This document shows positions 47,113 to 62,174 of a DNA stretch of 64,000 nucleotides, one piece after another; positions within the stretch are counted from its first letter, which is position 1, and each line of letters begins with the position of its first letter. A model generated the notes under the pieces. That model was not told where the DNA came from and did not search any database. It saw only the letters and a list, made by a program, of their open reading frames with translations. Position numbers and translations under genes: made by a program. Location: sequence record OP595145.1; one strand, written 5' to 3'. This DNA comes from Escherichia phage vB_EcoM_DE16.

Positions 47113-47634
47113 TTAACTCCCCTTTGGTAGATAGAAACCATGCACTTTATCTCGATAAACAAGACGCATATCACGTTCCCAGTGTGTCCTTATATTCCGT
47201 TTCTTGAAGTATAGAGCACCTTTAGTAACATCTAAAACAGACCGCAATTCAGGAAAATGTTTCTCTAAATAAAGTAAACGCTCCGCTATTGCTTTTGCTT
47301 CCTGCCATTTATCTTTTTCTGTTACGTTAAAAGTTTTCGCATATGAGAATTGCCCTTTCTGGAACAAAACTCCTCTGACTGTGTTAGGGAAGTAGGTATC
47401 ATTTCTTCTGTTGATTACCACATTCCCAACGGCATTCATTCCTTTTTTACCCAGACCGCGACCTTCTGCGTAAATTGCACAAGCTAATAGAATTTTATCA
47501 TTATATTGCTTTGTACATTTGTGAACTACTTTAGCGGTTTTTACGTTTGCAGCTTCGGCTTTCGCCACAACAGGTGTAAATGTAAAAGCAGTTAAGGATA
47601 GTAACGCAACTGTTACAAAGTTTTTTATCAGCAA
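47113..47634 (-). CDS. secreted cell wall hydrolase, SleB / Hydrolase_2 family (possible endolysin)
   Basis: 173 aa; N-terminal signal peptide (LLSLTAFTFTPVVAKAEA); motifs YAEGRG, NVVINRR, FQKGQFS; TTG start after GGAGG. Confidence 0.6.
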   Translation of the reverse strand: MLIKNFVTVALLSLTAFTFTPVVAKAEAANVKTAKVVHKCTKQYNDKILLACAIYAEGRGLGKKGMNAVGNVVINRRNDTYFPNTVRGVLFQKGQFSYAKTFNVTEKDKWQEAKAIAERLLYLEKHFPELRSVLDVTKGALYFKKRNIRTHWERDMRLVYRDKVHGFYLPKGS

Positions 47635-47666: not shown

Positions 47667-47695
47667 AGTATAACACGATAGAGGCTTTATTGCAA
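47667..47695 (-). promoter_or_regulatory. sigma70-like promoter, TTGCAA-N17-TATACT, preceded by a GC hairpin
   Basis: Hexamers with 17-nt spacer upstream of the SleB-like gene; hairpin GAGGGGGA-TTTC-TCCCCCTC just upstream. Confidence 0.45.
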
Positions 47696-47733
47696 GAGGG
47701 GGATTTCTCCCCCTCAAAATCATTTGTTAATTA

Positions 47734-48336
47734 TTATGGACATTCATACCATTCTTTTTTACCACCGAAGGCCATCACCACATCACAAATATCCAGACCA
47801 GCTTTACCTACACCATATGCTTTCAGCTTCCATTCTCCATCTTCACGAACCAAGGAAGCCACGTGGCAGATTGTGTTGCCAGCTACTTCAGGAGCCAGGA
47901 AGTCAAAATCCAGAATTTCCACATTGCGCTCGGAGTCGAAGATTTTAAGCATACCTTCAGAAGCATGACCAAAACGTTTCAGACCTGTATCATCATCAAT
48001 GGTCAGAACAAAGGCAATCTCTTGTGCATCAGGAGAGATTTTAGCCAGAGTAATATCAATCTGCTCCATGCTGCCAGTTCCATCACGAACATCATCACCA
48101 GCGAAGGTAGAACGTTCAGGATCAAACTTGTTAGCATAGCAAACCAGATGACGTGCAGACAGCATTTCAGGATTGCCAGCGGCATTGTGACGACAAACCA
48201 GTGCACTTACATCCAGGTCCAGTTTAGAATCAGATTTCCAAGAGAATTCCAGGCGCAGTTCTTTCAGAGCCGGAGCAACTTTCTTCAGGGAAATTTTTTC
48301 GCTAGAGCCTTTTTTCAGGGAAATTTTATCAGTCAT
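47734..48336 (-). CDS. terD: TerD-domain protein
   Basis: 200 aa; tandem KISLKK strands at the N-terminus, LDLDVSAL motif, acidic GDDVRDGTG loop; closely follows the E. coli TerD N-terminal pattern. Confidence 0.7.
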   Translation of the reverse strand: MTDKISLKKGSSEKISLKKVAPALKELRLEFSWKSDSKLDLDVSALVCRHNAAGNPEMLSARHLVCYANKFDPERSTFAGDDVRDGTGSMEQIDITLAKISPDAQEIAFVLTIDDDTGLKRFGHASEGMLKIFDSERNVEILDFDFLAPEVAGNTICHVASLVREDGEWKLKAYGVGKAGLDICDVVMAFGGKKEWYECP

Positions 48337-48351
48337 CTTTTGTCTCCTCTA

Positions 48352-48621
48352 TTATTTAAGTGTAATACCAGTTACAGTCAATTCTACTTCCAAAAGCTTA
48401 GATGTGTTTTGGATTGATACTAATTGTGCATGATGGTTTAGTTCTACAGCAGAATAATCATTCTCCCCATCATCTACTTTTAAATAAACAATAACTTCAC
48501 TAAGGTCTAAACCATTTTCGTCAAATGCAGTTTCATAGACGAAAGTATCTCCTACATCCAAATCTTTAATGGTAAGGCATCGTTTATTTACTTTTTGCTC
48601 ATCAATTTCGAAGTTTAACAC
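48352..48621 (-). CDS. small TerD-adjacent protein, paralogue A
   Basis: 89 aa; paralogous to the 49643 gene (shared DLxxGxTF and GLD motifs and ITLK end). Confidence 0.45.
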   Translation of the reverse strand: MLNFEIDEQKVNKRCLTIKDLDVGDTFVYETAFDENGLDLSEVIVYLKVDDGENDYSAVELNHHAQLVSIQNTSKLLEVELTVTGITLK

Positions 48622-48850
48622 TTCTTCCTCCTAATGTTATCTCCGGTTTGTATATACGAAGAATTATAGCATTTTCATTTTCTTTGTCAACCCATTCTTC
48701 ATAATCGGGCCATACATGAATCTCTACTCTATTCGCAATATCTTCCATCCGCACAGTCCCAATGAAATACTCTTTGAGACTGCGCATAATGAAAGCTTCT
48801 CTCTCGCGCCAATAATTTTCTACGACTTGAGAGGCAAGCTCGTCGATCAT
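48602..48850 (-). CDS. hypothetical protein
   Basis: 82 aa ORF between the vWA and paralogue A genes. Confidence 0.35.
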   Translation of the reverse strand: MIDELASQVVENYWREREAFIMRSLKEYFIGTVRMEDIANRVEIHVWPDYEEWVDKENENAIILRIYKPEITLGGRSVKLRN

Positions 48851-49641
48851 TTTTTAGCACCTACTTTAACAACCCACTCTCCGAACTCTTCAGATAAGAG
48901 TTTGTCATAAAGCTCTGAATCTGTCAAGTCTAAATCTTTAATGCCAATAAAACCAACATTATCATAAGCATTTGCCAGTTCTTTCAGGAAGCCAAACTTC
49001 TCATTACCAACGCCAACCATGAACCAATAGATAGGCTTATTCTTATTTTCTTCAATAAGACGACGAACAGCACTAGGATCACCATTCTCACCATCTGTCT
49101 GGAAGAATACAACACCAGGGGTAACGTCAGCACCTGGTTCAGATACAGCTACAACCTTTTCACGCTCTACAGACACTGTTTCAGTTTTACCAAGCAGACG
49201 ATTAAAGAAGCCTTTCTTTGGAGCCTCCTCTTGTACCACTTGTTTAGTGGTAATATATTTGGTAACAGTGCCAAAATACTCATCGTAGATATCTGCCATT
49301 ACAGGGGCGTAATTTGTTCCACCTCCGATACGAACATTACGCATACATTTACCAACATAGTCATCGTAAACGTCTGCTGTTGCTGGAGTAAGCTCTTGAG
49401 AACTCGTATTGAAGGCCCACATGTCAATTTGTTCATTATCGTCGAACAGCATACCAAAAGGAAGCAGTTTACCTACAAAATCACTCACTACCCCACGAGC
49501 ATATAGACTATGCATACTACCAGAAATATCTAGAGCACATGCTACACGAAGAACAATCTTACCTTCATTCAGGTTCTTATTCTTTTTCAGAGAGAAAGCA
49601 AGGTTTTCTTGACGTTTTTTCAGGCTGATTTTCTCGGACAT
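48847..49641 (-). CDS. vWA-domain protein with TerD-like N-terminal strand (TerF-C-like / TerY-like)
   Basis: 264 aa; N-terminal KISLKK ... FSLKK; MIDAS motif DISGSM, downstream GGGTNYAPV. Confidence 0.6.
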   Translation of the reverse strand: MSEKISLKKRQENLAFSLKKNKNLNEGKIVLRVACALDISGSMHSLYARGVVSDFVGKLLPFGMLFDDNEQIDMWAFNTSSQELTPATADVYDDYVGKCMRNVRIGGGTNYAPVMADIYDEYFGTVTKYITTKQVVQEEAPKKGFFNRLLGKTETVSVEREKVVAVSEPGADVTPGVVFFQTDGENGDPSAVRRLIEENKNKPIYWFMVGVGNEKFGFLKELANAYDNVGFIGIKDLDLTDSELYDKLLSEEFGEWVVKVGAKK

Positions 49642-49642
49642 A

Positions 49643-49921
49643 TTATTTCTCCTTCTTAAGTGTAATGTTGGTAACTTCTAAATCTACTTCCACCATATTT
49701 GTATCTGGTGGGATACAATGAGTATAGCCTCGTTGTGCTAGTGATCCATTAATACAAATCGCACTGTTTGTGGAATTTTTAATGAACACCAAGTTACGGT
49801 AGGTATCCAACCCTGCGTCTTCATAGGCATCATAATACATGAATGTGGCCCCTATGCCAAGATCTTCGAAAGCAATAGGCAAATCCTGACACTTTTCTTC
49901 TTGAATATTGAATCTAAACAC
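49643..49921 (-). CDS. small vWA-adjacent protein, paralogue B
   Basis: Start re-assigned to GTG preceded by GAGGAGG; 92 aa; aligns with paralogue A over its full length. Confidence 0.45.
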   Translation of the reverse strand: MFRFNIQEEKCQDLPIAFEDLGIGATFMYYDAYEDAGLDTYRNLVFIKNSTNSAICINGSLAQRGYTHCIPPDTNMVEVDLEVTNITLKKEK

Positions 49922-50477
49922 GCATACCTCCTCTACCAATTTTGAAGCCCAAATCGTAAGCTTCCTTAGTGATCTTTTGTAACTCACTTATAGGAAGTGT
50001 TACAAGAGGATCATCTTCTTCAATTTCCATCTTGTCATCTTCTGTTTCAATGAGAGTATTATGCACTTTGTGATAAGGGTTGTCAACACGTTTAAACTTA
50101 TTCTTTTCTGTGCTGAAAAAACAATCTGGATCTTCTTCACCATCACCCCAACCTTGGTTAGGATCTCCGTCAGATTGTTCTGTAGGGATTTCACCTGTAA
50201 AGTACTCTTCCAGCACCATAGCAATACCGTCCCTTGGATTTGAGGAATGCATTAAATCACAAACCTTACCCCAATCCATAGCCCATTCGAACCGTTCACG
50301 AACGCCATTTTCATCCTCCTTTCCAGAGAAAACACAACCATAACTATCATAGTTGCCATACATCTCTTCAATAACAACACCATCCTTCAAAAGAAAGAGA
50401 TAACAAGGTGATCCGTCGAAAGAAGTAGAAAGGGCAGCTTTGCCAGATTCCTTACACAAAAAACTAAAACAACCCAT
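49914..50477 (-). CDS. hypothetical acidic protein
   Basis: 187 aa ORF. Confidence 0.4.
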   Translation of the reverse strand: MGCFSFLCKESGKAALSTSFDGSPCYLFLLKDGVVIEEMYGNYDSYGCVFSGKEDENGVRERFEWAMDWGKVCDLMHSSNPRDGIAMVLEEYFTGEIPTEQSDGDPNQGWGDGEEDPDCFFSTEKNKFKRVDNPYHKVHNTLIETEDDKMEIEEDDPLVTLPISELQKITKEAYDLGFKIGRGGMRV

Positions 50478-50846: not shown

Positions 50847-51043
50847 TATTCCTCCTCCTCGTTGAAGTCGATATCTGCAAGTAGTTGGAATTTACGGAAG
50901 TTACGACAACCTTCATAAATATAACAATCACGACAAACTGCTAGAACACTTGGGGGATATATGCCTCCCATCGGTGCGAATCGTTTTTCGTCATCATAAC
51001 GGACACCAATGTCTTCATCAATTATATAGATACGGATTCTCAT
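50846..51043 (-). CDS. hypothetical small cysteine-containing protein
   Basis: 65 aa; start overlaps TelA-like stop. Confidence 0.35.
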   Translation of the reverse strand: MRIRIYIIDEDIGVRYDDEKRFAPMGGIYPPSVLAVCRDCYIYEGCRNFRKFQLLADIDFNEEEE

Positions 51044-52152
51044 TTACCAAGCCCTCGTTTCACAGCAGCTACCATCCCGTCTTCCAGAGATTGAACTTCA
51101 TTAATATAATCAACACGAGCAGCACGGGCTTCCGTATTGATGCGGTTAGTTTCTTCCAACATCTTAACCAAGTTTTCCTGATCGTGACGCAGAGTTTCAA
51201 TATCCAACACTTGACGGTTAGCCAGTGCTGCTGCTTCGATCTGATTCTGTGTGGCAAGATCGCTACCCAGTTTAATTGCCAGGTTAAATTCGTCAAGAAC
51301 GTTATTCTGCGTCTCTGCTGCTTTCATTTGACGTAAGCTCTCGATATACATGGAGAAGTTAGCAGAGTAAGCAGGAATAACATTATTTACTATGTTACGC
51401 GCAGATCGCATTAAGCTTGCAGAAACTTTTTGCATACCTTGTACACGCGGTCCCATTTGGACACACAGTAGGCGCAATGCTTTTAAATCTGCAATACGAA
51501 TCTCCAGAAGATCCAAAGTATCTCGGATCACTTGTCGCTGTTCTACTGCATCTTCTGGAAGAGCAGCCAAAGCTTGTTCTTCTTTTTCATAGGTTGCTGT
51601 TAGAAGCTGCATATCTCGGTTCAAACTTGCAGCATATTGTCCAATAGCTTGATGTAGCTTTTCAAGATATACCAAGGAATCTTCTTCTTTGCGAATATCC
51701 ATTTGAAGGTTCTTTACCAACTCTTCAATACGGTTATTAACATTATCAAACTCCCCAAACAGGTCTTCTTTCATACCCATAACTTTTTTAATGAGTTTAG
51801 TAATACCCTTGCTTTGTTTAATAGAGTTTGGATCAAGTTGTTTTGCCTGTTTAATCAAAGCTGTGAGTCGTTCACTCATCTGATCACCTTGATTACTACG
51901 TTGATGTTTTAATACCTCGGCATTCAAGGAACGCAAGGTTGTTCCTGCCTCTGCCCCGATTTCTTCGATTTCTTGCCTGGTCATAGAAGGCAAAGCTGGT
52001 ACTTCTTGCGGTGCGGCTGGTGCATAAACAGGACTGGCATCTAACACGCTTGGAGCGAATACAGATTTACTGGCATCTGTTGTTGCAGCAAATACGCTCA
52101 TTTCAGGCTTCTTCTGACCACCAGTAGCTGCTTTTAAAAATGGACTTGTCAT
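51040..52152 (-). CDS. TelA-like (toxic anion resistance) protein, putative
   Basis: 370 aa, all-helical with A/P/S-rich N-terminus; assignment rests on size, helical character and Ter gene context, no sharp motif. Confidence 0.4.
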   Translation of the reverse strand: MTSPFLKAATGGQKKPEMSVFAATTDASKSVFAPSVLDASPVYAPAAPQEVPALPSMTRQEIEEIGAEAGTTLRSLNAEVLKHQRSNQGDQMSERLTALIKQAKQLDPNSIKQSKGITKLIKKVMGMKEDLFGEFDNVNNRIEELVKNLQMDIRKEEDSLVYLEKLHQAIGQYAASLNRDMQLLTATYEKEEQALAALPEDAVEQRQVIRDTLDLLEIRIADLKALRLLCVQMGPRVQGMQKVSASLMRSARNIVNNVIPAYSANFSMYIESLRQMKAAETQNNVLDEFNLAIKLGSDLATQNQIEAAALANRQVLDIETLRHDQENLVKMLEETNRINTEARAARVDYINEVQSLEDGMVAAVKRGLGK

Positions 52153-52739
52153 TCTTCATTCTCCTCTTCTGCATCTCTTATATATGGTGAAACACCGTAC
52201 TCTTTAGCTACTTTAACCCAATCGTCCCATTTATACAACCATAATTTTCCTTCTGTCCCTTCTTTATCTGATTTCAACCACATATTAGGTTGCTTACCTG
52301 GGTACATGCGATTAGGTTTACGATTATAACCTCTAACACATCTTGTCGCAAACCTATCTACCAGAACAAGAACATATTTATATTCGTGGTTCAACGGCTC
52401 TTTGGAAGTGGCTTTAGGATTAGCCCCTAATTCTGCTGCCAGTTTTTGCCAATGAGCACCGTGCCTACTAAACTTACCCATACAACCATCAATAGCATGA
52501 GCAATTTCGTGCTTCATTGTATCTACGATCATATCTCTTGTGGAGTTCTTATGCAAGTGCCAATTTACAACAACAATTTTATCTCGGTAGTTGCACCAAC
52601 CGAAAGAGTTATTCACTTTGTTTCTAACACAAGCTTTATATCCTGCTTCACGTAACATGTTGTAGTAAACAGGAAAATCTTCTTTTATTTCCTGCATCAC
52701 TTCCCACCACAAGAGTTGCAAGTCTCTCTCGGTATGCAT
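52149..52739 (-). CDS. SprT-like zinc metallopeptidase domain protein
   Basis: 196 aa; HEIAH (HExxH) motif. Confidence 0.4.
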   Translation of the reverse strand: MHTERDLQLLWWEVMQEIKEDFPVYYNMLREAGYKACVRNKVNNSFGWCNYRDKIVVVNWHLHKNSTRDMIVDTMKHEIAHAIDGCMGKFSRHGAHWQKLAAELGANPKATSKEPLNHEYKYVLVLVDRFATRCVRGYNRKPNRMYPGKQPNMWLKSDKEGTEGKLWLYKWDDWVKVAKEYGVSPYIRDAEEENEE

Positions 52740-54364: not shown

Positions 54365-55339
54365 TTAAACAGCAGCTTCTTCTTTTTCAGGGAAGATAAA
54401 GCTTGCAATAACACCAAGAGCTAATGTGCCTAGAACAATCATCAGACTTACGTTAGGGGAAATATCATGCGGGAGGAATGACCACTTGGCATGAAGTGTT
54501 TCACCGAACGGGTGATACATAAGTTTAGCACCAACAAACACCAGAACCACAGCAACAGCTTTCTCTAAGTGAACCAGATATTTCACAGCTACACTTAACA
54601 CAAAGAAAAGTGCACGTAAACCAAGAACAGCCATCAGCATTGCAGAATAAACTAGCAGAGGTTCTTGTGTCACCCCGATCACAGCCGGAACTGAATCAAA
54701 AGAGAAGACAATATCTGTAAGCTCAATAACAAACACACAAAGAAGAGCAGGAGTTGCATATTTAATACCATTCTTAATGGTAATGAACTTTTCACCATCT
54801 AGTGCATTGTGCACAGGCAGAACTTTACCTACTAAACGAACAGCCCAATGCTTAGAGTAATCAATATCCTCTTCTTCGTCACCACCTTTGATGATAGCCA
54901 CGGCAGACCAAGCTACAATCAAACCGAACAACACTTGGACCGACCAATGAAGGTTAAACAAAGCGGTCCCTGCTGCAACAAAAATACCTCGGAAGACAAT
55001 GGCTCCTGCAATCCCCCAAAGTAAAATCTTATGTTGGAGATGTGTGCTCTTAATTCCAAAGCTTGCAAAAATTGCCATGAACACCATCAGGTTATCTACA
55101 GAAAGACTCTTTTCCAACACATAACCACTTAGGAAAAGCGCGGCAAACTCTTTACCATGTTCTACCCAAATGAATGCGTAATATCCTAAAGCTAAAGCAA
55201 TCCAAAAAACAGACCAAAGCAAAGCAGATTTAATTCCAATTTCTTTATTCTCTTTATGACCAAAGAAATCGATACCAATAGACAATGCCAAAATACCAAC
55301 TAAAACAACTACATCAATAATTGGGAAACCGAGTTGCAT
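54365..55339 (-). CDS. terC: TerC-family integral membrane protein
   Basis: 324 aa, multiple TM helices; conserved YVLEKSLSVDN and FSFDSVPAV motifs. Confidence 0.7.
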   Translation of the reverse strand: MQLGFPIIDVVVLVGILALSIGIDFFGHKENKEIGIKSALLWSVFWIALALGYYAFIWVEHGKEFAALFLSGYVLEKSLSVDNLMVFMAIFASFGIKSTHLQHKILLWGIAGAIVFRGIFVAAGTALFNLHWSVQVLFGLIVAWSAVAIIKGGDEEEDIDYSKHWAVRLVGKVLPVHNALDGEKFITIKNGIKYATPALLCVFVIELTDIVFSFDSVPAVIGVTQEPLLVYSAMLMAVLGLRALFFVLSVAVKYLVHLEKAVAVVLVFVGAKLMYHPFGETLHAKWSFLPHDISPNVSLMIVLGTLALGVIASFIFPEKEEAAV

Positions 55340-55652: not shown

Positions 55653-56126
55653 TTAAAGTTTATAAATAGTCACATCGTGACCTGTTTTTACTAAAGTTTC
55701 TTCAATCATCACTTGGATGATAGCCCAATTACCTCCGGCATGTCCCGCTCCAATCATAGGTAAACCGATCTTACATTTTTGGTCACGGAGAAGCAAATCA
55801 TTAGCCATAGCTATTAGTGCATCGTATAGGGCATCATAGTCCAACTGACGACCTTTAGCATTATATCCGTAACGGTATTGCCCGTATAGATTATATACCA
55901 AAGGGTCTGATTGTTCGTCTGGCACCCCTAAACTAAAAGAACCTAACTTACTTTGATCACCAGCCATTGTGTCTAAATCTGCCGCATATGCATAAGGGAA
56001 TGCTCGTTTAATTTGCGGAGCAATTCCTGCCCCCATATTACACATACAATTGCAACAATGAGCAATAACAGTTACTTCACCTGCTTTAGCGGCATCAATA
56101 AGATTACCTGTTTTCATTTTAAGCAT
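55653..56126 (-). CDS. macro domain protein (ADP-ribose binding / hydrolase-like)
   Basis: 157 aa; N-terminal NLIDAAKAGEVTVIAHCCNCMCNMGAGIA and later LPMIGAGHAGGN follow the macro-domain glycine-rich pattern. Confidence 0.5.
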   Translation of the reverse strand: MLKMKTGNLIDAAKAGEVTVIAHCCNCMCNMGAGIAPQIKRAFPYAYAADLDTMAGDQSKLGSFSLGVPDEQSDPLVYNLYGQYRYGYNAKGRQLDYDALYDALIAMANDLLLRDQKCKIGLPMIGAGHAGGNWAIIQVMIEETLVKTGHDVTIYKL

Positions 56127-56138
56127 TTTAGCTCCTTA

Positions 56139-56966
56139 TTACAGAATGTGTTGTTTTGTGTAACGATCCAAGAATTCAAAGTTTTCAGCATACTTTGAAA
56201 TTCGGTTGTAACCTTCTCCCAAACATCCGAAGAAAAGTTGCTCTACATAGTAGTGTGGCAATTGGCTAAGAATGATTTTGAAGTCTTCGTGATTTTGGCC
56301 CATAAGATACTTAATAGGACGAACAAGACACTGTGCATCACGTTCTTCATTAATCATTTTAACAAACGCTTCTGGTGTATTAATATAATTAAAATTCAGT
56401 TTAGCTTCGGTATCTGCTTGATTACCTTCATATTTTGCAAAATACAAGAAGTAAACATCATTTTTAACTTGATTTTCATCAAGGATCTCAATCAGTTTGT
56501 CTTCATGAGTTCCAGTGATATTTACATCATCAATAAACACAAGCTTCTTATCACCCCAGAATTCTTTGTTGCAGTAGAATGTATCCCCATCGATAAGTTT
56601 CTTACGACTAGCTTTATCCAAGAAACCATAATCGTTGATATAGCTAACTTTACGATGAATAATATCCAGTTCTGCTGAACGACCTTGATCATATTGTGAT
56701 TGCAACATATTAAAGTAATTAATAAAATGATCTGTCATCATTGTTGCAGCATTATGCACATGGTTGTAAGGAGAAGGAATGATAACAAATTGTTCCCCAA
56801 TATGTTTCATTGCCACTTGAGCAAAAAACTGAAGTGCCAATTCTTTACCCATACGACGCGCAGCCTGGTTACTACCAAATTTCAATTTTGAATAATCTTG
56901 GATATCAAAAGTAGCAGTTTCCAGGTCATCAAATTTATTTGCAAAAATTTGAGTTTGATTACGCAT
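56139..56966 (-). CDS. phosphoribosyltransferase-like protein
   Basis: 275 aa; PRPP-binding-like loop KLVFIDDVNITGTH. Confidence 0.45.
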   Translation of the reverse strand: MRNQTQIFANKFDDLETATFDIQDYSKLKFGSNQAARRMGKELALQFFAQVAMKHIGEQFVIIPSPYNHVHNAATMMTDHFINYFNMLQSQYDQGRSAELDIIHRKVSYINDYGFLDKASRKKLIDGDTFYCNKEFWGDKKLVFIDDVNITGTHEDKLIEILDENQVKNDVYFLYFAKYEGNQADTEAKLNFNYINTPEAFVKMINEERDAQCLVRPIKYLMGQNHEDFKIILSQLPHYYVEQLFFGCLGEGYNRISKYAENFEFLDRYTKQHIL

Positions 56967-57636
56967 TTACAATTTCTCCTCTTTTAAGTTTCTCTAGTAA
57001 GTCGTTAGGGTTCTTAATATGACAGAAGTTAATCCCTATGTCAACACATTTACCATCAAATTCTTCGCTGTCCCCAACATGTAAAATCTCTTCAGCCTTC
57101 AAAGGAATGCTTGAATATGTGGCGGTCCTAACAAAGAATCTAGGATCTGGTTTACACAACAGATGTTCGTCTGAAAAATGCATAAATTCAAAACAATTCC
57201 AACTGTCGAACATACAAGCACGACGCAAAATATCCCCAGATATAAAATTAGTATTGCTTTTAATACTAAGATCATATTTACCAGACAAGTATAGCAAACA
57301 AACTGGCAAATCTAAAGCAATATGTGGAGGAAATTTAAGAAACCATTGCTCACACTCAAAACGCATTTGTGCAGATTCTACAGGGGTTAAACCTATCTTT
57401 CTTCCCAACATATTCCATGCATATGCTACACCTTCTGCACACCCATTTAGTGCAGCATTATCCATAATTTCTTTGGCATCTTTATATGCTTCTTTTGCCG
57501 CACGTTCAGACATTCTACCATATGTAGCAATAGTGTGCGTACGTGCATCTGCATAGTTTTGATTGGCAGAAATAAGAGTATTCCATACATCAAAAGAGAT
57601 ATGTTTTATTGTCATACTAGGCCCACCATGCATCAA
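56959..57636 (-). CDS. HAD-superfamily hydrolase-like protein
   Basis: 225 aa; motif I-like ISFDVWNTL and motif IV-like HVGDSEEFD. Confidence 0.4.
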   Translation of the reverse strand: MMHGGPSMTIKHISFDVWNTLISANQNYADARTHTIATYGRMSERAAKEAYKDAKEIMDNAALNGCAEGVAYAWNMLGRKIGLTPVESAQMRFECEQWFLKFPPHIALDLPVCLLYLSGKYDLSIKSNTNFISGDILRRACMFDSWNCFEFMHFSDEHLLCKPDPRFFVRTATYSSIPLKAEEILHVGDSEEFDGKCVDIGINFCHIKNPNDLLEKLKRGEIVNA

Positions 57637-58222
57637 GATTTAAGTTACTGTCTACCACAACTTGTTCTATGTGGTAGCCTTTTATCTGTATGCCACTGTT
57701 CAAGAGCATATCATATGCTTCATTGAAACGCAACTTATCTTCTGCGGAATATAAGCGAGCATTATAAAATCGGTAATCAATTTCTTCAGCATTAGAAGAA
57801 ATACGGAAGAAGTTTGTTTCTACTTCGGGATCACTTGCTGAAGTCTTAATGTGAACTTCTCCATAATTTTCTTTACTTAGATCCATGAAAAGAACACAGG
57901 CAACATGTTTAAACATTCGTTCCAGTTTGTAACGAACAACATTGAAACCTGCATTCTCAAGTTTTTCTACACACTGCAACATTAAAGTAGTGTCGAGATC
58001 GCTTTGATACTTTGTTAACATACGATCACGTTGAGACTTTGTATCCCGATGTAAATCAATTGTTGTGCATTTTGCACCAATAATCTTAGCTGCTTTCATC
58101 AACTCTTCAGAACTAACGTTAGATAAAGTAAGATGAAAATGGGCTTTCCACACTTTTTTAGCAGGGACACCAAAAGATTTATCCCCACTATTCGGCATGT
58201 TGACTACTACACTATGTTGCAT
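57617..58222 (-). CDS. hypothetical protein
   Basis: 201 aa ORF. Confidence 0.4.
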   Translation of the reverse strand: MQHSVVVNMPNSGDKSFGVPAKKVWKAHFHLTLSNVSSEELMKAAKIIGAKCTTIDLHRDTKSQRDRMLTKYQSDLDTTLMLQCVEKLENAGFNVVRYKLERMFKHVACVLFMDLSKENYGEVHIKTSASDPEVETNFFRISSNAEEIDYRFYNARLYSAEDKLRFNEAYDMLLNSGIQIKGYHIEQVVVDSNLNLDAWWA

Positions 58223-58237
58223 TACTTATCTCCTCAC

Positions 58238-58429
58238 TTAAAATGGAAGTCTTTGAAGTTCATCTCCTCCGATATCAAGTAATTTAGCAACATCTCGATC
58301 AGAAAGCAACTCTTTTCTTTGTAAAATATCCACAAGGGTTGCAAGAATGTCCTTAACGTCCCGATCACTGTTCTTCAAAAGTTCTCCTGCCGTCCCTACT
58401 TTATCTCCTACAGCAAAATATGTAACCAT
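58238..58429 (-). CDS. hypothetical small protein
   Basis: Start re-assigned to ATG (MVTYF) after TAGGAGG; 63 aa. Confidence 0.35.
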   Translation of the reverse strand: MVTYFAVGDKVGTAGELLKNSDRDVKDILATLVDILQRKELLSDRDVAKLLDIGGDELQRLPF

Positions 58430-58442
58430 GAAACCTCCTAAG

Positions 58443-58913
58443 TTAATCTGATTGCCAACCACTTGCCGTTTTGGTCCATAATCTTTGATTATCTGACCCT
58501 CTGAAAGGTTTTGTAGTTGGATTGTTTATTTCATACTTTCCGTCTACAATAATGTCAACAAGATTTTTAATATATAAAGGCACTTCCTCAAAAGTATATC
58601 CTGTATACACCATTATATCTTTGCTTGACCCATAAACGTCTCTAACCTTTTCTATAAGGCTTTTAACATTGTAAATATTCTGCGGATCTAATGGTTCTCC
58701 TCCTAAAATTGTTAAACCTTTTACAAACGGTCTTGACAAATCTTTTAAAACTTGCTCTACATTTTCGTGAGTAAATGGTTTCCCGTAAGAATAAGACCAG
58801 GCTTTCTGGTTAAAACAGCCACGACAACCGTGGCTACAACCACTAACCCAGAGGGAGCACCTAACTCCCTCACCATTAATAAGATCTACAGGTTCATATC
58901 CTGCAAAATTCAA
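58443..58913 (-). CDS. nrdG: anaerobic ribonucleotide reductase activating protein (radical SAM)
   Basis: 156 aa; CSHGCRGC CxxxCxxC cluster; directly downstream of nrdD with overlapping stop/start. Confidence 0.8.
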   Translation of the reverse strand: MNFAGYEPVDLINGEGVRCSLWVSGCSHGCRGCFNQKAWSYSYGKPFTHENVEQVLKDLSRPFVKGLTILGGEPLDPQNIYNVKSLIEKVRDVYGSSKDIMVYTGYTFEEVPLYIKNLVDIIVDGKYEINNPTTKPFRGSDNQRLWTKTASGWQSD

Positions 58914-60724
58914 AGATGTTTCTCCCTTTGCAAAACTTCCTGCATTTTACCTTTGTTATAAGGCCGTGAATTAGGGGCAGAAAGATACCCTGATACACGT
59001 CTAACTACAGAAATAGTTTCTTCTTCATGGTTGCCACAATCAGGGCACTCAAACCCTTTAGCCGTTGCCTTAAATTCTCCATGAAAACCACACTTAAAGC
59101 ATTGATCCACGGGCTGATTAATACCAAAATAGTGAATATGTTCATAAGCGTAGTCTACTAAAGTCTCCAAAGCTTCTAAGTTATTCTTTAAGTTTGGTGT
59201 TTCGACATAACTTATGTTACCACCATTGCTAATCTGTGCAAAACCTGCTTCATAATCCCATTTTTCAAAAGGATTTGTTACCAACCATACAGGTTGATGA
59301 AAAGAGTTGGTAAGATAGTCTCTTTCTACCAAACCTGGGTATTTTTCATTTAAAGCTGTTGCAAACTTATAGCACAAGGATTCTGCTGGAGTTCCATAGA
59401 GACTAAACGCCAGTTTAGATCGTTCTTTAAACACAGCACACACATCTTTCATATGTTGCAGAATGTTTTTACCAAGTTCCTTTTTATCTTTTTCTTCTGG
59501 ATAAAGGATTTCCAAAGCTTCAGCAAGACCTACATAACCAATACTAATAGAAGCATAACCATCTTCAAACAAAACACCAATTTCATCGTTGGCATTTAAA
59601 CGCGCTAAAGCCCCTTCCATGAAAAGAATAGGGTTTTCAGATGCTTTGGTATGTCTAATACGGTTTACACGTAGCATGTGAGCATCATAGGCTATCTCCA
59701 TATGCTTATTAAGAAGATCGGTGAAAGATTCTCCTTTGCTTCTCGCTTCCGCAGCAATCAGAGGCAAGTTGATAGAAACTACTCCAAGGTTGAATCGTCC
59801 ATCATATTTTTCTCCTTGTTCTGTGGCATAGTACGACAAAAAGGAACGACAGCCCATACTCGTAACGGTACCATCTGCTGATCCCGTAACTTCTTTGTTC
59901 AAAGGAACAGAAATAAAATCTGGATAAATACGATCAGCACAACATGCCAAAGCTTGTTGCTTAAGGTCATAGTTAGGATCACTAGGTTTCATGTTAACAC
60001 CTTCTTGTAAAAAGAAAATAACTTTAGGGAATACAGGCGTTACATGATCTTTGCCTAGACCATTACTATGCACTTTAAGATAGTTAGCTGTGATCATTCT
60101 GCCAAAAACAGAGGTATCCAGACCCATACTGATTGTAATAAAAGGAGATTGTCCATTTACACTCATTAAAGTATTAACCTGATACAAGAGAGTTTGCATA
60201 GCATCATATACATCTTGTTCAGTCATTTCTAGGGCTTCTTTCCTTGCATAACAACCGTAGCGACGTTTGGTTATCTCCATGTTTTTAAGGAAACTAGCTT
60301 CAACATAAGGACTAAGACCTTTATCAATGTGCGCACACGTCTGACCGCCATACTGACTGGAGGCAACAGCTTGGATGATTTGAGTTAGCACTGTAGTAGC
60401 TACTCCAATAGATTTTGGTTTTTCTATCTGTGCAGCACCGATCTTAAAACCATTCTCTAACATATCTTGATAATTAACAAGACAACAGTTTGTAAGAGGA
60501 GAGAGTAGATAATCCAAGTCGTGAATATGTCCAAAACCTTCTGTATGCCATTCTGACAAGTTTTTTGGCAGTATCTGTGTCATTGCCATATGTTTGCTTA
60601 AAATCCCCGCCAAGAGATCCCTGTGCGTGTTAACGAGGTGGGAAGGTTTGTTTGCATTCTCTCTAGTGTATGTTTCTGAAGTGCGATCTAAAAAAGAAAA
60701 AACATCTTGGTACAAATCTTTCAT
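58910..60724 (-). CDS. nrdD: anaerobic ribonucleoside-triphosphate reductase
   Basis: 604 aa; C-terminal CxxC...CPDCG zinc ribbon and glycyl radical motif RRVSGY. Confidence 0.85.
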   Translation of the reverse strand: MKDLYQDVFSFLDRTSETYTRENANKPSHLVNTHRDLLAGILSKHMAMTQILPKNLSEWHTEGFGHIHDLDYLLSPLTNCCLVNYQDMLENGFKIGAAQIEKPKSIGVATTVLTQIIQAVASSQYGGQTCAHIDKGLSPYVEASFLKNMEITKRRYGCYARKEALEMTEQDVYDAMQTLLYQVNTLMSVNGQSPFITISMGLDTSVFGRMITANYLKVHSNGLGKDHVTPVFPKVIFFLQEGVNMKPSDPNYDLKQQALACCADRIYPDFISVPLNKEVTGSADGTVTSMGCRSFLSYYATEQGEKYDGRFNLGVVSINLPLIAAEARSKGESFTDLLNKHMEIAYDAHMLRVNRIRHTKASENPILFMEGALARLNANDEIGVLFEDGYASISIGYVGLAEALEILYPEEKDKKELGKNILQHMKDVCAVFKERSKLAFSLYGTPAESLCYKFATALNEKYPGLVERDYLTNSFHQPVWLVTNPFEKWDYEAGFAQISNGGNISYVETPNLKNNLEALETLVDYAYEHIHYFGINQPVDQCFKCGFHGEFKATAKGFECPDCGNHEEETISVVRRVSGYLSAPNSRPYNKGKMQEVLQREKHL

Positions 60725-60792
60725 TATTAATCCTTATTTTGTGAGTAGAACTATTATTCTACCTCTTTCAACCGAAAAAAGCTTTGAGGGAA

Positions 60793-60820
60793 ATCAAAAA
60801 AGGCGCAAAGTGCGCCTTTA
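60793..60820 (-). terminator. rho-independent terminator between the 60825 gene and nrdD
   Basis: GGCGCA/TGCGCC hairpin followed on the minus strand by TTTTTT. Confidence 0.6.
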
Positions 60821-60824
60821 AGTT

Positions 60825-62174
60825 TTATCGTTTGGAGAGGAATTGTCTTCCCATGATCTTACCATTCTTTACAGCGGTCCCATCATGTCCATTATAATCC
60901 CAAGTTCCGTCGATATTACGCAAGAAACTATCACGAACAGTGTAGGCTTTACCGTTCTCTACTTTACTTTCTTCCACAATGATCGCCATAACAAGCTTAT
61001 TTTCAATTTCGGTAGTAACCGATTCTTTGATACCCTCTGTAACTTCACGATCATATTGGATATAAACTCGCTCCTCAGTCACTTGCACGTCTACCACATT
61101 TTTAAATGTGTAGGTCTGTTGTGTAGTGTAGAGGACACGAACGACACTCTTCTTACCTACTGGCGGCTTCTGACGACGTTTGCGGTAACGTGGAGACGGG
61201 TTAAGTTTAATATAGCCTACAATGTCTGATCCATCTCCAGAGTGGCTCCAATAAAGTGTCTCTGCCAACAAACCTTTTCCTTGGTCCCCATTTCGAAAAA
61301 GAACATCAACAGGACCATCACAAGGGCGTTTACCTCCGATGTGGGCTTGGTATTTTGCTGTTCTTGGGAGAACAAAATATTCTTCAATCTGCCATTCACT
61401 ATCGTATTTCTCCCACTCAAAGTGGTTGGCTTTGCATACTTCTAAAACACCATTTTTGTAACGGACTTGAACAAAGTCCTCACAAGGTTGAATACCTGTA
61501 TTAGGAATATAGGTAGGCTCTGTGTCTTCTGGTTCAAAAGTCTCTTTTTGTTGTTCCACATCTTCCACTTTTCTTACATGCTTAGTATAAAACATATCTT
61601 TAAACTCCTGTGCTTCAACCTCAACTGCAAATTCATGTTCTCTGACAGCCGGAGGCACAAGGCTTCCACACTCAAGATGTAGAGCATCCAGACCTGCCAT
61701 TTTATCGTAAAAGATAACTTTTCGATACTTCTTACCGTCTTCTGGAATAGCAGGGTCTACTCGTTTAAGACGGGAAGCATCGCTTTTAGTCCAAAAACTC
61801 TTCCCTGTTGTATTATTGAAAGTAGTAATCATTTCTCCAATTTCTTCTTCAGAAAGGTTACTAGTGTCTGTGTAAACATCTTCAATTTTTAGCATTTTAG
61901 TTTTCTTAAAAATTAAATCTAGCATTGCATCTCCTGTAAAACGTAGTTCATTATCTCCTACTGTCGGCTCTCCAGTAAATTCATCGGTCCCGACTGTGTG
62001 ACAGATGTATGGAAAATTTGTGCAACCGTGTAAAAGAGCATATTGTCCTGTAAGTTTAGGATCTGTCTCTTTAGTCCAACCATATGCAATCTCAATAGCT
62101 TTGCAAAGCTTATCGAACAAGCCCCGATTGTTTGCCGCTGTTACCAAATCTTGCTTATGTGCATATACATTCAT
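60825..62174 (-). CDS. hypothetical protein
   Basis: 449 aa ORF; no motif recognised. Confidence 0.45.
   Translation of the reverse strand: MNVYAHKQDLVTAANNRGLFDKLCKAIEIAYGWTKETDPKLTGQYALLHGCTNFPYICHTVGTDEFTGEPTVGDNELRFTGDAMLDLIFKKTKMLKIEDVYTDTSNLSEEEIGEMITTFNNTTGKSFWTKSDASRLKRVDPAIPEDGKKYRKVIFYDKMAGLDALHLECGSLVPPAVREHEFAVEVEAQEFKDMFYTKHVRKVEDVEQQKETFEPEDTEPTYIPNTGIQPCEDFVQVRYKNGVLEVCKANHFEWEKYDSEWQIEEYFVLPRTAKYQAHIGGKRPCDGPVDVLFRNGDQGKGLLAETLYWSHSGDGSDIVGYIKLNPSPRYRKRRQKPPVGKKSVVRVLYTTQQTYTFKNVVDVQVTEERVYIQYDREVTEGIKESVTTEIENKLVMAIIVEESKVENGKAYTVRDSFLRNIDGTWDYNGHDGTAVKNGKIMGRQFLSKR

Follow-up and report, generated by a model that had tools for sequence, protein, structure and literature searches.

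Within a 64,000-nucleotide (nt) stretch of DNA from Escherichia phage vB_EcoM_DE16 (OP595145.1; hereafter the window), two small genes, which we call small-A and small-B, lie against the genes for a vWA-TerF-like protein and for TerD. Judged from their alignment, the two are genuine paralogous genes, and across relatives every member of their family with readable flanks touches one or both of these Ter genes. Gene content places the locus at the 3′ end of a Ter (tellurite-resistance) stress-response cluster that is carried by the phage and is fairly complete. We tentatively favour the view that the small proteins serve the vWA/TerD module as optional accessory subunits. Every gene discussed here is encoded on the minus strand; in order of transcription, those of the immediate locus are:

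49914–50477, minus strand: 187-amino acid (aa) gene (open reading frame list and PHROGs search).
49643–49921, minus strand: small-A, 92 aa, GTG start; phrog_11278, E 5e-49.
48847–49641, minus strand: vWA-TerF-like, 264 aa; PF10138, E 8e-38.
48602–48850, minus strand: 82-aa gene; phrog_22387, function unassigned.
48352–48621, minus strand: small-B, 89 aa, GTG start; phrog_11278, E 4e-44.
47734–48336, minus strand: TerD, 200 aa; PF02342, E 3e-28.

A preliminary description of this DNA had reported two small open reading frames (ORFs) at 48352–48621 and 49643–49921, whose products align over their full length. Both ORFs were confirmed, and the ungapped alignment of their products has 27 of 89 residues identical (BLASTP E 4e-12). 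Each protein matches phrog_11278 from end to end (small-B over residues 1–89, E 4.2e-44; small-A over residues 1–92, E 5.2e-49), and the family hidden Markov model (HMM) finds just these two members in the window. The start of the 92-aa form of small-A is an internal GTG within a maximal ORF of 114 aa; we favour this start because AGGAGG is present 5 nt upstream of it, and because the homologues are all 87–93 aa long with a common M-x-x-F beginning. The ratio of non-synonymous to synonymous substitution rates (dN/dS) was computed in comparisons with five Phapecoctavirus-like genomes, three of them close and two distant. It was 0.16–0.25 for small-A, whereas for small-B it was 0.26 against the three close genomes and 0.45 against one distant genome (L005), with the comparison to the other (L003) being saturated. 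These low values indicate that both genes are real and under purifying selection. The GTG starts of both ORFs and the lack of a match in the curated family library could suggest that they are not genes, and that their similarity is chance or the relic of a non-coding duplication, but this is effectively refuted by the alignment E-value, by a length and start that are constant in about 20 divergent clusters and by the dN/dS of 0.16–0.26, with the Shine-Dalgarno sites and the confident fold prediction also opposing it, and it can for practical purposes be set aside. In Escherichia phage ECO340P2, small-A (L018, 2227–2499) is 85% identical in protein sequence to that of the window with a synonymous divergence (dS) of 0.40, while the vWA protein beside it is 99.6% identical with a dS of 0.07, which resembles a patch of local recombination that is restricted to the small gene.

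To place the pair among relatives, we read the flanks of the family in phi92, 05F01, phiWec190 and the loci L004–L013, L021, L024, L025, L029 and L038–L041. In the window, small-A adjoins the vWA gene and small-B adjoins the TerD gene, as had been noted, with stops 1 nt and 15 nt before the respective ATGs. The association with Ter genes is conserved elsewhere: all family members with readable flanks touch vWA-TerF-like and/or TerD, and none is separated from both. Four gene orders were found:

small – vWA – 82 aa – small – TerD: the window, phiWec190, L005/6 and L018–L021 (Phapecoctavirus-like).
small – vWA – TerD: phi92, Klebsiella phage 05F01 and two IMG/VR contigs.
vWA – small – TerD: L004, L008/L025, L009, L013 and L038–L041 (eight divergent metagenomic lineages).
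vWA – small – small – TerD: L010–L012 (one further lineage).

The vWA and TerD proteins of the eight divergent lineages are 44–63% identical to those of the window, where measured, and the other neighbours differ; the spacing of the small gene to vWA/TerD is tight or overlapping there too. The 82-aa gene is restricted to loci in which vWA and small-B are not contiguous (L003, L005, L006 and L018–L021), and is absent from phi92, 05F01 and the divergent lineages examined. The preliminary description had read the arrangement as a functional pairing, with one small partner for each Ter gene. The constant adjacency to vWA/TerD is in keeping with this, but one partner per Ter gene is a feature of Phapecoctavirus-like genomes only.

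In a neighbour-joining tree, the A and B copies of Stephanstirmvirinae form one clade with 100% bootstrap and the divergent members fall outside it; bootstrap support is 72% for the B clade and 54% for the A clade. The order vWA–small–TerD is the commonest and probably the ancestral one. We infer from gene order and tree that the simplest history would run from this order through duplication to losses: a duplication in the common ancestor of the Stephanstirmvirinae-type clade would have seeded a second copy upstream of vWA, the Phapecoctaviruses would have kept both copies, and the phi92-like and 05F01-like phages would have lost the 82-aa gene along with the downstream copy. The tandem pair of the further lineage may come from a separate or older duplication. 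Its two copies (L010 6001–6546, L011 1180–1725 and L012 257–802) share ~39% identity and are not sisters in the tree. A larger duplicated cassette was considered and rejected, as the 82-aa and 187-aa genes are not significantly similar (E 0.03).

The family is small and has no known kin. There were 22 family matches among 5.8 billion clustered proteins, and an exhaustive HMMER search over 1.84 billion representatives gave 19 genuine clusters, all of them standalone proteins of 87–93 aa. A further protein from the exhaustive search (P0034, a 1191-aa FN3-repeat protein) was discarded as a false hit inflated by its repeats. Searches of Pfam, NCBIfam, PADLOC and the PDB sequences gave no match for the small proteins; hits to DUF5006 (E 0.049) and phrog_7832 (E 8e-4) were taken to be noise. 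Profile comparison found the family unrelated to TerD, vWA and the 82-aa gene (probabilities 0.1–0.2%), and a locus search with a narrower family alignment returned no contigs beyond those already found.

The family is acidic throughout (median isoelectric point 4.65, median net charge −6), and its best-conserved polar positions are G24, T26, G37-L38-D39, K48 and N58. G37, L38 and D39 are kept in 29–31 of 34 members, and the AlphaFold2 (AF2) model places this G-L-D motif in a loop that follows a short helix. The AF2 model of small-A (predicted local distance difference test score, pLDDT, 83) resembles an SH3-like barrel, and it superimposes on the BFVD model of K7QLS7, the small-B orthologue of phAPEC8, with a template modelling (TM) score of 0.75–0.77. 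The small proteins are predicted to be acidic SH3-like β-barrels. Among SH3-like small barrels, FeoA, KOW, Tudor and the ribosomal L2 C-terminal domain were compared and have no sequence relationship to the small proteins; the match scores are too low, and folds of this kind too widespread, for a function to be drawn from them.

If the reading that we tentatively prefer is right, the small proteins would be accessory subunits, adaptors or modulators that are co-produced with the vWA-TerF-like protein and TerD and act on them. Small-A would be translationally coupled to vWA, while small-B and TerD would be under one conserved, strong host-type promoter. More speculatively, the contact could be made by the near-invariant exposed G-L-D loop, or by general acidity, and its target could be the intact metal ion-dependent adhesion site (MIDAS) of vWA, or the basic KISLKK leaders common to vWA and TerD.

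Several observations weigh against such a role. The carriers are all syntenic relatives, which confounds adjacency with descent, so some of the adjacency may stem from common ancestry and from duplication in place; the closeness of the paralogues is likewise explained, since local duplication suffices alone. Neither large protein search found the small domain fused to vWA or TerD. At non-synonymous sites the small genes change 4–5 times faster than the vWA and TerD genes (dN/dS 0.02–0.08 for vWA and 0–0.06 for TerD), and both acidic small proteins and SH3-like folds are common among phage ORFans. Carriage is also incomplete. vWA-TerF-like genes are present in 212 phage records and the small family in 126, and five of the 14 IMG/VR loci retrieved with the vWA alignment carry the family; the remaining nine lack it within ~3.5 kb on each side, with L023 checkable upstream only because its sequence ends right after vWA. 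No member of the family is present in L022, L026–L028, L030–L034 or Klebsiella phage KP13-16 (vWA 38–69% identical), and among loci without it, vWA identity to the window reaches 65–69% in L022 and L023 and is 57% in L026. Where such loci have downstream sequence, TerD directly follows vWA. The more distant phage Ter loci that we looked at (CcrColossus, Bacillus phage WH1 and phiPsa374) all lack the family as well. As close relatives do without it, the small gene is at most an optional accessory, and core Ter function would be independent of it.

These observations lend themselves to a different account, which we consider quite possible though somewhat doubtful: the small genes could be ordinary fast-evolving, moron-like accessory genes with a function unrelated to Ter, placed where they are by synteny and local duplication. 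Such genes would be dispensable in close relatives, as these are, and would sit in a mosaic region, as these do, since between TelA and TerD genes of 187, 239, 193, 82 and 67 aa vary by lineage. Elsewhere, non-homologous small genes take the same slots: an unrelated 97-aa gene lies between vWA and TerD in L034 (4196–4489), and an unrelated 110-aa gene lies upstream of vWA in KP13-16 (L014, 3648–3980). The apparent local recombination at small-A (dS 0.40 versus about 0.06 in its neighbours), a dN/dS above that of the Ter genes, and the lack of fusions or of a match to a known family in the databases searched all agree with this account. It is harder to reconcile with the position of the gene, which abuts vWA and/or TerD in at least 12 distinct lineages and is never one or two genes off, though the other neighbours change. 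Contiguous vWA–small–TerD is maintained down to ~45% vWA identity, and two independent lineages keep two copies, both within the module. The 97-aa protein of L034 contains ‘LKVGDTLTRF’, resembling ‘LDVGDTFVYE’ of the family, but its match to the family HMM is not significant.

A more specific form of the accessory-subunit reading seems unlikely to us. vWA domains with a MIDAS can bind an acidic side chain of their partner, as in recognition of the integrin I-domain type. The MIDAS residues are intact here and an Asp in a predicted loop is nearly invariant across the small family, a likeness that is no more than an analogy. In this more specific reading, the small barrels might be dedicated MIDAS ligands (via G-L-D), KISLKK binders, or both, within an obligate vWA–small–TerD assembly in which the paralogues are specialised, one tethering vWA and the other TerD. 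If true, this would be the first defined protein–protein wiring within a Ter system, and a handle on Ter in infection.

An effect on expression also seems unlikely to us. Here, the small proteins would be nucleic-acid-binding factors like SH3, KOW or Tudor proteins, or their genes would serve as upstream ORFs needed for the expression of vWA and TerD. The first alternative sits poorly with the strong acidity of the family noted above. As to the second, vWA and TerD each have their own Shine-Dalgarno site and relatives possess both genes without any small gene. Moreover, since the protein sequence is under purifying selection, it is the product of the small genes that matters rather than mere translation.

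The accessory-subunit reading draws on expression signals within the locus, where genes are also closely packed; the vWA stop overlaps the start of the 82-aa gene (ATGA), and 20 nt are shared between the 82-aa gene and small-B. The candidate signals are:

50058..50086, minus strand: promoter-like TTGACA-17-CATAAT, 11/12 match, inside the 187-aa gene and 165 nt upstream of small-A.
48663..48690, minus strand: sigma-70 consensus promoter TTGACA-16-TGcTATAAT with a TGn extension, 12/12 match, inside the 82-aa gene.
47696..47715, minus strand: GC-rich hairpin GAGGGGG-AGAAA-TCCCCCTC, −17.2 kcal/mol, z −3.1, just 3′ of the TerD stop.
47695..47667, minus strand: promoter-like site for the endolysin gene, next after the hairpin.

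The site at 48663–48690, ~40 nt upstream of small-B, is the sole 12/12 sigma-70 consensus on either strand of the window. Both of its hexamers are intact in phiWec190 and L005/6, where the residues and flanking codons differ (V/I/L-D-K; A/V-I-I/M) and dS is ~1. That the hexamers are kept while codons vary at such divergence speaks for the DNA signal itself being under selection, and the site is predicted to drive small-B and TerD. In phi92, which is without small-B, a TTGACT-17-TAAAAT site is present in the vWA–TerD spacer. From these sites, it would seem that in both genera TerD has a host-type promoter of its own, with small-B as the first gene of the unit in Phapecoctavirus. The site at 50058..50086 is kept in phi92 and phiWec190, but we do not regard it as strong evidence, as the surrounding coding DNA is equally conserved. 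The hairpin is the probable end of the transcription unit, although it is not a canonical intrinsic terminator because it has no T-tract.

The two larger proteins are readily assigned. TerD matches PF02342 with 98.9 bits (cutoff 25.3), with residues 5–179 corresponding to profile positions 3–177 of 187, and the vWA protein matches PF10138 with 131 bits (threshold 29.4) in two stretches, residues 31–123 and 161–260. The MIDAS of the vWA protein is intact, with an LDISGSM sequence (DxSxS), and D38-I-S40-G-S42, T109 and D183 are invariant in an alignment of nine homologues; we take D38, S40, S42, T109 and D183 to be the MIDAS residues from general knowledge of vWA domains. As the preliminary description had stated, both proteins open with KISLKK, and their N-termini align over ~20 residues (BLASTP E 0.001). 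Its wording of the vWA protein as ‘TerD-type’ has to be withdrawn, since the protein has no TerD domain and neither the whole sequence nor the first 30 residues match PF02342.

The basic leader of the vWA protein (49552–49641, minus strand; MSEKISLKKRQENLAFSLKK) is 30 aa long and lies outside the Pfam vWA model, which starts at residue 31. All 13 of the phage vWA-TerF-like proteins that we inspected, among them examples from Caulobacter, Bacillus and Pseudomonas phages, carry the pattern x-L-S-L-x-K-R-x-E-x(4)-S-L-K-K, so the KISLKK leader is a general trait of such proteins and not specific to this locus. The net charge of the first 30 residues is +5 in vWA and +4 in TerD. TerF-type proteins, the source of PF10138, consist of a TerD domain with a vWA domain fused C-terminally. 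The window vWA is like TerF in matching PF10138 and in opening with a motif resembling the first two TerD strands, but it differs in having no TerD domain, with TerD being encoded separately. The leader mimics the TerD N-terminus (two strands, LSLxK...SLKK), and could be either the relic of a TerD–vWA (TerF) fusion or a docking element that both proteins share.

More than 60 Phapecoctavirus genomes match a 2.5-kb region of the locus at 98–99% DNA identity, and the source of the window is a Phapecoctavirus, a phAPEC8-like Escherichia coli myophage of the subfamily Stephanstirmvirinae. The other genes of the cluster and its surroundings are:

56959–57636, minus strand: HAD-like, weak Pfam match (E 1.4e-3).
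56139–56966, minus strand: PRTase_3 (Pfam E 2e-41).
55653–56126, minus strand: Macro (Pfam match).
54365–55339, minus strand: TerC (Pfam E 3e-40).
52149–52739, minus strand: SprT-like (Pfam match).
51040–52152, minus strand: TelA (Pfam E 3e-33).
Between TelA and the 187-aa gene, minus strand: several small ORFs (ORF list).
47113–47634, minus strand: endolysin (Pfam and PHROGs searches).

TerC, TelA, TerD and vWA are thus co-located with a PRTase and a weakly matching HAD gene, the gene set by which a Ter system is recognised; the PADLOC models gave no match for the small proteins, TerD, vWA, TelA or TerC. Ter clusters have already been reported for phi92-like and other large phages (PMC7824862, PMC8386662, PMC11162368), with phi92, phiKp34, Acinetobacter phage ME3 and the Caulobacter jumbo phages as named cases, and the role of phage Ter during infection is stated to be unknown (PMC11162368). 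The window resembles the bacterial and phage systems in having TerC, TelA, TerD, vWA-TerF-like, PRTase, HAD-like and Macro genes (PMC7824862, PMC8386662, PMC11162368). It differs from the published phage clusters in that no small protein adjoining vWA and TerD, or placed between them, is described there, within literature that did not extend to the founding Ter paper (Anantharaman et al. 2012), and from the other phage Ter loci examined in that the small family is absent from them.

Phage Ter clusters, and the grouping of both ORFs in one function-unassigned PHROGs family, were therefore already known. What is new, as far as the literature covered goes, is that the family is confined to the vWA–TerD core and always embedded in it, that vWA–small–TerD is the likely ancestral order, that duplications have recurred within the module, and that a promoter is embedded upstream of small-B. 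Ter clusters are common in bacteria, plasmids and large phages, and their mechanism is poorly understood, so a 90-residue protein wedged in the vWA–TerD core across deep divergence offers a cheap experimental handle on Ter assembly. Its significance is bounded by its occurrence in one phage clade, by its dispensability in near relatives and by a contact with Ter proteins that is conjectural.

Some minor observations concern the wider region and the matching records. Upstream (5′) of TerC, the cluster (55653–62174, minus strand) contains the Macro-domain, ComF-like PRTase and HAD-like genes, and it borders the anaerobic ribonucleotide reductase genes NrdD (58910–60724) and NrdG-like (58443–58913). 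The GC skew turns from positive to negative near 34 kb of the window, which may point to a coding-strand switch between two divergent gene blocks. Records labelled as Campylobacter phages (B15, A150, C3 and A145), Acinetobacter phage vB_AbaM_ABPW7, Pseudomonas phage PsgM04F and Serratia phage KKP_3264 give matches to the small protein or vWA that are as close as those of bona fide coliphages of the same genera, with a DNA identity of 98.6% for Acinetobacter phage vB_AbaM_ABPW7; mistaken host labels or contaminated lysates may account for this.

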